DNA of 6,005 nucleotides from a virus (taxonomy: Duplodnaviria > Heunggongvirae > Uroviricota > Caudoviricetes), in the IMG/VR virus record IMGVR_UViG_2698536387_000007; one strand, given 5' to 3'. Of the stretch, positions 3,897-6,005 are shown piece by piece. The notes under the pieces were generated by a model that saw only the letters and a list, made by a program, of their open reading frames with translations, was not told where the DNA came from and did no database searches. Every line of letters starts with the position of its first letter. The stretch's first letter is position 1. The position numbers and the translations under genes are program-made.

Positions 3897-4595
3897 TTAC
3901 CCGTTATCTCCTGTCGTTATTTTCTGTATGACATCACGATGCTTATTAATTTCCCGCAGCGCGGCGCATAAGCGCTCCCACTTCTGAACCTGACCTTTTG
4001 CCCGGCGCAGCTCGCGGTTAGCCACATGCAGCGATGGTAAAATCAGACCATCCGGATGCTTTCTGATGAACGACGACTGTGACTGCACTGTGACCGCCAC
4101 ACTTTCAGTTTTAATTTCTTCCTGTGTTTCCGCTTCCCGGACTGGTAACGCAACACCTGCCGGCTGAGGAAAGGCTTTACCATCGGTTTCCGTTACCGAT
4201 GCAGCTTTCGGCTCTGCCGGTAAATTATCGCCCGGTATGCAGTAACGATATTTACCGTCCTGATTTACGCGAATCAGACGACCTTTGCTGACAGCCATCG
4301 CCAGTGATGAATTCGCCCGGCGGGAGGTAATCCCGAACATTAACGCCAGTTCGTCAGCCGACTGAGGACCATGCTGTTCAATCGCGTTAATCAGCATCTC
4401 TGCAGTGGTTTTTGGGGCCGCTTCAGTTGCCTCACTCGTCAGCCACCACATCGACCCCTTGTTATCAGCTTCGCCACGACGCTTCAGCTTCCAGAGTTCG
4501 GTAACAGCATCGTCACGGCTGATTTCAAGACGGGCTGCAATCTCGTGCGACGAGGCTTTTTTCAGTGCTTTCAGTGCGTCAAAAACGGTTTCCAT
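3897..4595 (-). CDS. Winged-helix protein, Ren-like in domain and position (232 aa)
   Basis: Start chosen at 4595..4593 (METVFDALK...) because of the strong SD GGGAGG with 8-nt spacer. The track start at 4661 would overlap the P-like gene by 32 nt. Two winged-helix-like segments; the second ([42 protein letters not shown]) resembles lambda Ren from memory. It sits directly after the P-like gene, as ren does in lambda. Confidence 0.6.
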
Positions 4596-4629
4596 TAAAT
4601 TTTCCTCCCGGTAAAAATTACTTCTCAAC

Positions 4630-5292
4630 TCAGACAAAACCGGCCGCCTTCCGGCGCTCATATTCCTGTTTCAGCAACTCAATTGGCGTTGGCCCTGGCG
4701 GGCGTTTGGGTGCTGCCAGTTGTCGCCGGACTGGCGGAACACTGAGGCCATTACCAACATGCTTTGCCCATTTCGTCAGCTGCCTTTCCACAAGCCGTTT
4801 TAACTCCCCTTCGGTCATCTGGCGCTCAATCCCCTTTGAACGCATCTCGAGGCAAATGTGGTACAGCACCGGCTGTGGCCACGGGTATTTATCACTCCCG
4901 TCGTACCGCCAGGATTCATTCCTCCAGCGACGGTATTCCTCCATCACGGCATCCACCGTCAGGCCAAATGGATTTGCCCCGCTCTCCGAAATCAACGCCA
5001 CAAACTCAGCCAGATCCGGAGGCCACGTTTCACCCGCCCGGCAGCGGTCCATGCACCGACGGCAGATCTGCCGAATTTGCTGTTCAGTCATCGCGCCAAT
5101 CTGAGCAATCCAGAGTTTCGACGGCGCAGCCCCGTTCTTCTGAGTCCAGCGGTTCGAATACACCTCCCCCATAAGCTCCCACAGCTTCCAGGCCGTTTCC
5201 GTTGCTGATAAATCCGTTTTCACGTTCCCACTGTTCGCGTGCAGCCCGGATTTCCTGAACTGCCCGTGATGCGGTGCCACCTGGTGCTGCAT
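4630..5292 (-). CDS. P: Lambda P-like replication protein (DnaB helicase loader)
   Basis: C-terminal two-thirds match lambda P as I recall it (TEQQIRQ..., [21 protein letters not shown], similar length). ATG at 5292..5290 has a good SD (AGGGGGT, 5-nt spacer). This start implies a 208-nt overlap with the O-like ORF; alternative in-frame starts are at 5172 and 5091. Confidence 0.75.
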
Positions 5293-6001
5293 GGCTTACC
5301 CCCTTGCTGACTGGTTTTACCTGTGCCCTGACGTGCTGCACGTGGCGGGCAAATTTCTGCTCCCACTGAACCTGCGTGAAAACCTTCCCCTCCGCCATCC
5401 AGTAATCCCGGAATGCGGCAAGCTCAGCAGGTGTAAACTCAGGCTCAGGCAGAGCCATACCCCACACTGCTGCCCGCTGTCGAAAATCCGGCGACGGTTG
5501 CCAGACTCCAGTCATCGGAAATTTCCCGATCGGTTCGCTCAGGCCGTCCAGGTATTCAGGTTCGGCTGTCTGCAACGACGCGTCATTCAACTCACCGGTC
5601 GTAGCACTCTCGCGCATGCGCGCGTTATGTGTGGGGTTTAATTCTTTATCTGTATCTGTATCTGTCGTGATTTGTCGTGACATATGCGTGACGCGTCGTG
5701 ACTCATCGTGACAATCAGTGTTCTGCTTCCGCAGTCTTTCCCGCTCCCGCTGCGCTCTCTTGCGCTCTGCCGGGGATTTTGCGGTTTGCGAAACATTACC
5801 GTTATCCTCCTTCATCACCTGGCGTTTTTCCCATCCGGAAATAAGATCACCATCCAGAACTCGCCCCTGCATTGCATGCAAAATTGAATCAATCACGTCT
5901 TCCGTCACATCAAGCGCACTTGCTAAATCTTCCGTCGTGACATCAATGTGACCACGTAGTGACACGCCGTGACATGTCGTGACATTTCGTGACGCACTCA
6001 C
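5084..6001 (-). CDS. O-like replication initiator with iterons inside the coding sequence; 5' end may lie beyond the window
   Basis: 305-aa ORF directly upstream of the P-like gene. The visible start is GTG at the window edge and the frame stays open to position 6005, so the true N-terminus is uncertain. An N-terminal HTH-like segment (DLASALDVTEDVIDSILHAMQ) and a basic/TDTD linker are encoded by the iteron DNA. The C-terminal segment is W/F-rich (FRDYWMAEGKVFTQVQWEQKF). Confidence 0.6.
   Translation of the reverse strand: MSASRNVTTCHGVSLRGHIDVTTEDLASALDVTEDVIDSILHAMQGRVLDGDLISGWEKRQVMKEDNGNVSQTAKSPAERKRAQRERERLRKQNTDCHDESRRVTHMSRQITTDTDTDKELNPTHNARMRESATTGELNDASLQTAEPEYLDGLSEPIGKFPMTGVWQPSPDFRQRAAVWGMALPEPEFTPAELAAFRDYWMAEGKVFTQVQWEQKFARHVQHVRAQVKPVSKGVSHAAPGGTASRAVQEIRAAREQWERENGFISNGNGLEAVGAYGGGVFEPLDSEERGCAVETLDCSDWRDD
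5649..5722. repeat. Iteron array A: ori-like direct repeats with GTGA(C/T) core at 10-11 bp phasing, plus flanking ATCTGT repeats
   Basis: GTGA(C/T) begins at 5667, 5677, 5688, 5698 and 5708, with a degenerate copy at 5718. ATCTGT x3 lies at 5648-5665. The array falls in the linker-coding part of the O-like ORF. Confidence 0.6.
5937..5998. repeat. Iteron array B: six direct GTGAC-core repeats at 10-11 bp phasing
   Basis: GTGAC begins at 5937, 5948, 5959, 5969, 5979 and 5989, consensus about GTGACAnnnC, same orientation as array A. It lies at the 5' end of the O-like ORF and encodes the low-complexity residues 1-22. Confidence 0.6.
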
Positions 6002-6005
6002 CAGA

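Follow-up and report, generated by a model that had tools for sequence, protein, structure and literature searches.

How much DNA can an initiator gene and a helicase loader gene share, and where does the loader begin? The question is raised by a stretch of 6,005 nucleotides (nt) from a virus of the Caudoviricetes (IMG/VR virus record IMGVR_UViG_2698536387_000007), which we call the window and in which all genes, and all features given below, lie on the minus strand. It holds the 3' 922 nt of an O-like replication initiator gene (positions 5084 to 6005) and a P-like helicase loader gene for which we propose a product of 220 amino acids (aa) (4630 to 5292). A preliminary description had left the choice between an unusual 69-codon overlap of the two genes and a P start at one of two internal ATGs, at 5172 or 5091. 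The overlap is upheld over the internal starts: the far ATG at 5292 and its Shine-Dalgarno (SD) sequence recur in 35 related loci and P residues 35-67 are under selection, while the start at 5091 is rejected as the main one and that at 5172 is unlikely. We hold it highly probable, from comparative sequence analysis, that the overlap is a real and old dual-coding region in which P initiates at ATG 5292.

The list of open reading frames (ORFs) places the overlap at 5084 to 5292, with P in the +1 frame relative to O. It measures 209 nt when the O stop codon is counted, in agreement with the 208 nt or so reported at the outset. The O frame indeed runs without a stop to TGA 5086-5084, and a TAA in the P frame (5298-5296) lies one codon upstream of ATG 5292-5290. 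For comparison, one scan of contigs from one genome per species yielded 30 related loci in Escherichia, Citrobacter, Enterobacter, Klebsiella, Salmonella, Pluralibacter, Kluyvera, Pectobacterium, Serratia, Rouxiella, Buttiauxella and other genera. Together with added E. coli loci, the comparison set comprises 35 usable, non-identical loci from Enterobacterales, representing 9-18 lineages at 60-80% P identity; the scan of start codons covered 36 loci. O reads through in all of them: the initiator ORF ends within the P frame in each of the 35, and the overlap measures 149-224 nt. Of 34 loci scanned with a strict anchor, 32 have their O stop 46-61 nt ahead of WPPDLAEF; the other two are a frameshifted copy and an orphan P gene, and the distance extends to about 25-97 nt once loci L025 and L038 are included. 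Three Vibrio phages (D62, pA2SJ1 and 199E37-1; about 36% identity) display the same architecture, with overlaps of 194-230 nt. Among the sequences compared, the arrangement is conserved all the way from Vibrio phages to E. coli. It is also common in the latter species, where 1258 of 5426 complete genomes give a match to a 1.4-kb query that runs from the 3' part of O through the whole of P.

A doubly open stretch of this length is not readily obtained by chance. Outside the overlap, the 35 loci carry 0.054 stops per codon in the O frame across P-only sequence and 0.042 in the P frame across O-only sequence, and at these rates the chance of a 69-codon double-open stretch in one sequence is about 0.02-0.06. 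Both frames are free of stops over 49-74 codons in 35 of 35 loci. When the sequence was redrawn with synonymous codons so as to keep the P protein, the O frame stayed open in about 0.29 of trials per locus. Since the O frame would be open by chance only about 29% of the time per locus, and since P wobble sites are near saturation between lineages (proportion of synonymous differences, pS, 0.5-0.7), the O tail appears to have been kept translatable to its end.

The start signals of P point in the same direction. The proposed start codon (5290 to 5292) has an equivalent ATG in all 35 enterobacterial loci, set in O codons of the form NAT-GNN and located 80-91 codons upstream of the WPPDLAEF anchor. 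Its three bases are invariant while the overlying O residue varies among H, N, Y and D, that is, over all four NAT codons, which indicates that selection acts on the start codon and not on O. The SD sequence, AAGGGGG (5305-5299), lies within the O codons AAG GGG GTA and would form an anti-SD duplex of -11.8 kcal/mol; the preliminary description called it good. GGAGG or a close variant is found 5-9 nt upstream of the far ATG in nearly all enterobacterial loci. The O frame reads it as Gly-Gly; in 19 of 21 loci the first of the two is specified by GGA, a codon that enterics seldom use for Gly. Over 36 loci, mean anti-SD duplex energies are -10.1 kcal/mol for the far ATG, -6.3 for the internal ATG encoding Met41 (5170 to 5172) and -3.5 for that encoding Met68 (5089 to 5091). 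RNA folding of the internal P ribosome-binding site (-60 to +40) in 22 loci gave no common fold, with minimum free energy z-scores from about -1.7 to +1.4; the SD-ATG region is approximately half unpaired, and no evidence for structure-based coupling near the P start was seen in this set.

Selection acts differently on the two frames along the overlap. We computed ratios of nonsynonymous to synonymous substitution rates (dN/dS) from Nei-Gojobori counts on protein-guided codon alignments of pairs with at least 85% identity; such counts are biased where two frames overlap, and the figures for the overlap should be read in this light. The 5' half (5191 to 5292, P residues 1-34) is constrained in the O frame alone: dN/dS over P residues 2-34 is 0.25 in the O frame and 0.46 in the P frame. 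In the 3' half (5087 to 5190, P residues 35-68) the P frame is strongly constrained while the O frame encodes a Gly/acid-rich tail; over P residues 35-67, the most strongly constrained part tested, dN/dS is 0.03 in the P frame and apparently about 7 in the O frame. Outside the overlap, values are 0.07 for P residues 70-220 and 0.30 for the 100 O codons upstream. Sliding windows locate the crossover at P residues 25-34 or so (about 5215-5190). Changes in the 3' half sit on the wobble bases of P codons, each of them the first base of an O codon, and nominally synonymous divergence in the 5' half is lowered in both frames (0.14-0.17 versus 0.37-0.39 outside), as expected for double constraint. 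Each frame is thus constrained in one half only and shows frame maintenance alone in the other. Two checks proposed beforehand, homologue alignment and synonymous-site conservation in relatives, come out in favor of a true overlap: P conservation extends upstream of the internal methionines, and residues 35-67 are under purifying selection in the P frame. Neither of the outcomes named beforehand as refuting it was seen, since O does not end ahead of 5292 in the related loci and the methionine at position 68 is missing from 9 of the 36 scanned.

The P protein itself is best understood at full length. It belongs to PF06992 (59.6 bits against a cut-off of 26, P residues 55-187) and matches phrog_109, annotated as a P-like helicase loader (E = 4.9e-62, residues 20-219); homologues of 216-223 aa are present in databases. 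A family profile finds lambda P chains 8v9t/8v9s (E = 7e-07), and lambda P aligns colinearly with the window protein over its whole length. In homologues down to 45% identity, conservation over residues 35-67 (AW.LWE.MGEIYSNRW..KNG..PS.LWIAQIG) is among the highest in the whole protein: W38, R48, W49, K52, N53, G54, P57 and W61 never vary across 30 full-length homologues, and W35 is conserved in at least 90%. An AlphaFold2 model of the 220-aa form (mean predicted local distance difference test score, pLDDT, 67.5) has residues 1-28 disordered (pLDDT <50), followed by helices at 28-53, 59-66 and 70-85 onward. The first two (5095 to 5211; pLDDT about 65-75) align with the start of lambda P domain II. 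The best Foldseek matches of the model are lambda P chains in DnaB complex 9oa1, over 199-214 columns at a low template modelling score of 0.40. Lambda P is described as a domain I of residues 1-29, probably disordered in solution, a domain II of residues 30-119 or so, a domain III of about 120-192 and a C-terminal lasso (PMC12661323). According to the model, the 220-aa protein would reproduce this layout and a 153-aa form, starting at Met68, would begin in the middle of domain II.

The last 69 residues of O, correctly noted before as Gly-rich, contain 10 Gly and 14 Asp+Glu. An AlphaFold2 prediction for the last 145 residues of O comprises a confident DnaT domain, a disordered linker containing the P SD and ATG, a low-confidence helix and a disordered, Gly/acid-rich end. 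The helix (5219 to 5266; residues 86-101 of the fragment, pLDDT about 50-59) carries a conserved A.QQ.RAAR motif, has an O-frame ratio of nonsynonymous to synonymous differences (pN/pS) of 0.22-0.47 and is conserved behind different O front ends. The tail consensus reads A.QQ.RAAR ... G..G....E.LD.EER......D..D. Tails were collected from genomic loci; a protein search with the 145-aa fragment gave mostly partial E. coli entries, of low diversity. Taken together, the O and P models suggest that, wherever one protein is structured, the DNA encodes a disordered segment of the other.

We may thus picture the following mode of expression. Ribosomes translating O would read through to TGA 5086-5084, and other ribosomes would initiate P at ATG 5292 through an SD sequence that is itself O coding sequence. 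Over the first 100 nt or so, O would encode its conserved basic helix and P an unconstrained, disordered leader. Over the last 105 nt or so, P would encode the first two conserved helices of domain II and O a disordered, Gly/acid-rich tail whose residues follow the P wobble positions and whose frame is kept open. The resulting 220-aa P would share the layout of lambda P, with helical domains behind a disordered N-terminal leader.

What could such an overlap be for? Ahead of the O tail, Pfam detects DUF1376, Phage_rep_O, HTH_36/DnaD_N and DnaT as front or middle domains, and at least six unrelated types of N-terminal sequence can be told apart. Mosaic initiators occur at L003, L006, L013, L020, L024, L025, L026, L027, L030 and L033, with the same tail joined just upstream of the P start and with DnaT, lambda-O C-terminal-like or "ANxYQGLF" middle domains. 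The tail is absent from two matched initiators, E. coli K-12 YdaU and P0162, both of which precede loaders of the DnaC/IstB type (gaps of 6 nt and 15 nt, respectively). YdaU has the same DUF1376 front end and "SIANxYQGLF.PK" middle domain as the initiators of L024 and L030, and the P0162 initiator carries a DnaT domain. In lambda, a P-binding domain has been suggested in the C-terminal part of O and an O-binding domain in the N-terminal part of P, and O complementation is blocked when N-terminal fragments of P are expressed (PMC6022878). The O tail is probably the element that docks and recruits P. Because it is encoded within the P gene, tail and loader would be inherited as one cassette when O front ends are swapped. 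We therefore put forward, tentatively, that the overlap may be a linkage device: the peptide that docks the loader would be encoded in the loader gene, and "tail + P" would form an indivisible cassette, moved by recombination behind at least six unrelated, origin-binding front ends in Enterobacterales and Vibrio phages. If so, any initiator acquiring the cassette would automatically gain a matched loader-recruitment site, which suggests, in a form open to experiment, how lambdoid modules might exchange origin-binding domains and still keep each initiator matched to its loader.

Several observations weigh against dual coding or against a function of the tail. The Vibrio phages keep the far ATG with a weak SD (-3.5 to -3.8 kcal/mol). 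Synonymous redrawing that keeps the O protein leaves the P frame open in 0.59 of trials per locus in the 5' half, which makes this a weak test, and the 9-18 lineages are not fully independent. P residues 1-28 are devoid of purifying selection (pN/pS about 1; P-frame values of 0.9-1.8 in sliding windows of the 5' half), and their translation is suggested by the conserved ATG and SD and by the open frame. Nor is there purifying selection on residue identity in the distal O tail, where O-frame dN/dS exceeds 1. The tail of L038 is about 30 residues shorter than that of its relative L025. Finally, a cryo-electron microscopy sample that included lambda O 156-299 gave no density for O (PMC12661323).

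These last points bear on an alternative that accepts both gene boundaries and denies the overlap a function of its own. The distal O tail would then be neutral read-through that is simply tolerated, and its linkage to P a by-product. The apparent O-frame dN/dS above 1 in the 3' half is in line with this, as are the disorder of the tail in the model and its truncation in L038. Seemingly conserved residues of the distal tail are moreover dictated by P codons: Arg/Trp arise from the AAC/AAT of Asn53 and Trp/Arg from the codons of Ile65. We nonetheless find this explanation unlikely, if by no means negligible. The O frame is open in all lineages even though about 70% of resamplings with P-synonymous codons would introduce a stop, and further downstream the same frame accumulates the 0.054 stops per codon given above. 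The proximal tail helix is under purifying selection in the O frame. The tail accompanies every P of the clade and is missing from the two matched O proteins that are paired with DnaC-type loaders. An LD...DW motif similar to that of the tail is also present at the C-terminus of lambda O, where there is no such overlap. One of the classical amber mutations in O, Oam205, maps six codons short of the lambda O end (PMC6022878).

The LD...DW resemblance deserves a separate mention. Lambda O ends in ...KLDLTNTDWIYGVDL (L008:187-1086), which recalls the overlapped tail ends IDLDNGDWSSK of Vibrio phage D62 (L041) and LDCSDWRDD of the window (5087-5113). In lambda this sequence lies outside the O-P overlap; the motif is short and the resemblance could be due to chance. 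Were it real, the distal O tail would have a function of its own.

A second alternative shortens the overlap to 89 nt by starting P at ATG 5172, the upstream frame being open by accident or through O composition. Met41 is conserved in at least 90% of homologues and serves as the start of the 177-181 aa forms found in RefSeq for Citrobacter, Klebsiella, Brenneria and Pectobacterium; phrog_33198 also begins there. Its anti-SD pairing is moderate on average and reaches -9.3 to -9.8 kcal/mol in eight loci, and the lack of constraint on P residues 1-28 is in keeping with such a start. Against it, W35 and W38, upstream of Met41, are under P-frame selection, the preceding wobble base being free to vary so that O has L, M or V there. 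The predicted first helix begins at residue 28, ahead of Met41, and locus L026 has Leu in place of this methionine. An orphan P homologue of Erwinia starts with MFNNSPDTPVWQLWDTM..., 16 residues upstream of the Met41 equivalent, and keeps the first helix with only 9 residues ahead of it, which argues against a start at Met41 or Met68. Moreover, an initiation at Met41 would leave the universally conserved far ATG and SD unexplained. We regard it as improbable that P starts at Met41; that this codon serves as a minor second start is possible, if unlikely. From its short leader, the orphan gene (n=1) suggests that a long unconstrained P leader exists only where O must be accommodated.

The start adopted in current annotation fares worse. 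RefSeq, through the Prokaryotic Genome Annotation Pipeline (PGAP), places it at ATG 5091 in all five E. coli loci inspected, giving a 153-aa product coupled to O via ATGACTGA (5091-5084), an 8-nt overlap that includes the O stop codon, and leaving the upstream frame untranslated. The two internal ATGs and the junction at the O stop are present as initially described. The GenBank record of Rac-SA53 uses the same start, and ATGA-type junctions are the norm, lambda O and P overlapping by 4 nt, the few nucleotides mentioned in the preliminary description. Yet no equivalent of this ATG is present in 9 of the 36 loci scanned, its SD is poor, and in the aligned homologues the residue is often Leu. 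The 33 codons ahead of Met68 show the P-frame dN/dS of 0.03 and invariant Trp, Arg, Lys, Asn and Gly residues, the PF06992 match begins 13 residues before Met68, and a 153-aa P would lose two helices of the domain II equivalent. A short, translationally coupled ATGA or ATGnnTGA junction does not describe a locus whose start is not conserved and whose upstream codons are under P-frame selection, and conservation refutes the 153-aa form as the main product. We therefore give a start at 5091 very little credence. The RefSeq start, which drops 67 residues, is in terms of the aligned sequences almost certainly wrong as the main start. NCBIfam contains no model matching the window P and thus does not explain the choice made by PGAP.

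This has practical consequences, as expression or modelling based on the RefSeq form would use a truncated protein devoid of 67 residues, including two conserved helices. Several P N-termini coexist in public collections. Large protein clusters hold forms of 220-223 aa and 177-181 aa, and GenBank phage records list products of 153 aa (Rac-SA53), 140 aa (Stx2/PPompW phages) and 136 aa (Citrobacter phage Chris1). Adopting the start of the long form would correct a widespread annotation.

The least probable proposal, a programmed +1 frameshift producing an O-P fusion, is suggested by the +1 frame of P, by phrog_15931 (482 positions), which matches O at 42-347 and P at 279-482 as if built from fusions, and by a 333-aa DUF1376+P protein in one assembly (P0098), and we reject it because inspection of the overlap alignments, short of an exhaustive motif search, revealed no conserved slippery site, the position and context of the O stop vary among loci, the codon before the window O stop is GAC, whose tRNA cannot re-pair in the +1 frame as in a release factor 2-type mechanism, the conserved SD and ATG argue for independent initiation of P with no stable conserved RNA structure near its start, and fused database entries are single or rare, the Leclercia locus L035 being plainly frameshifted. 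We also came across P0030, a single 291-aa entry in which P is fused with DUF1627. P0098, P0030 and L035 are probably frameshift mutations or assembly errors.

Dual coding from ATG 5292 being our preferred reading, how does the locus compare with known systems? We see the overlap as a variation on the lambda O-P module rather than as a system of a new kind. Gene order in the immunity-replication region is shared with lambda: repressor, cro-like gene, (YdaT), initiator with internal iterons, and P-type loader. The loader is a colinear member of PF06992 whose best structural matches are lambda P bound to DnaB, and the initiators of L024, L025 and the Vibrio phages have lambda-O-like N- or C-terminal domains. 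In contrast, lambda O and P overlap by 4 nt (ATGA) and the window genes by 209 nt out of frame. Window O differs from lambda O by an extra tail of 65-70 residues (helix and Gly/acid-rich end) encoded entirely within the 5' end of P, and by a DnaT-type middle domain instead of the lambda O C-terminal domain. The Rac YdaU-YdaV pair of K-12 and the P0162/IstB-like pair share YdaS/YdaT-like genes upstream, DUF1627/YdaW-like genes downstream and DUF1376 or DnaT initiators with the loci studied here, but have an AAA+ loader of the DnaC/IstB type, a tailless initiator and a gap of 6 or 15 nt. Our searches of the searchable literature for a description of the O-P overlap, or of ydaU/ydaV or DnaT-like prophage initiators, returned nothing specific.

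Long same-strand, out-of-frame overlaps are well known in phages, such as phiX174 B within A and E within D, lambda Rz1 within Rz, or the MS2 lysis gene, and disorder is commonly reported in overprinted segments. The O-P overlap resembles these in that one DNA stretch specifies two proteins in different frames and that the unconstrained segment of each is predicted to be disordered. It differs in that the 3' end of one replication gene joins the 5' end of the next, with constraint handed over half-way and neither gene embedded in the other. The O and P products are also expected to be physical partners. This makes the locus a clean and deeply conserved case in which constraint alternates between partner proteins that would share about 200 nt. 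Point mutations silent in P or silent in O exist that would allow O and P to be separated genetically.

The whole window is 100% identical to a lambdoid prophage in the finished chromosome of E. coli O157:H7 strain 493/89. This match, along with the same architecture in at least 35 independent assemblies, leads us to reject a sequencing or assembly artefact. Gene order in the 493/89 prophage runs from dicB ... through a LexA-type repressor, a cro-like gene, a YdaT-like gene, the O-like gene (annotated as a DnaT-like ssDNA-binding domain protein), replication protein P and a DUF1627 protein ... to hokD. The O-like gene, whose true start lies about 116 nt past the window end, corresponds there to RefSeq WP_001262408.1, a product of 345 aa; its DnaT domain (PF17948, 63.9 bits) occupies residues 161-227 of the window ORF.

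Within the O gene we noted two clusters of TGTCACG-type repeats on the minus strand (5676-5713 and 5936-5994) with a spacing of 10-11 nt, which together contain all five exact TGTCACG copies of the window. They are probably iterons of the prophage origin, and would be bound as in lambda, whose ori lies inside O. In E. coli relatives, a mosaic boundary of the O front end is found at about 5650-5660 (query position 345-359 or so), just downstream of the second cluster.

The orphan P gene of Erwinia sp. MMLR14_017 (L037:2474-3043) encodes a lambda-P-like protein of 189 aa and sits between PTS (phosphotransferase system) transporter and LysR-type regulator genes, with no initiator or other prophage genes in the L037 neighbourhood. 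It may be a remnant or a domesticated loader.

Downstream of P (3897-4661 and neighbours), the window carries the DUF1627 gene and several small hypothetical genes, with hokD further on according to the identical O157:H7 locus. The longest DUF1627 ORF begins at ATG 4661 and would share 32 nt with the 3' end of P; RefSeq starts the gene at ATG 4595, which follows GGGAGGAAAATTTA. Unlike for P, it is the shorter product that looks right in this case.

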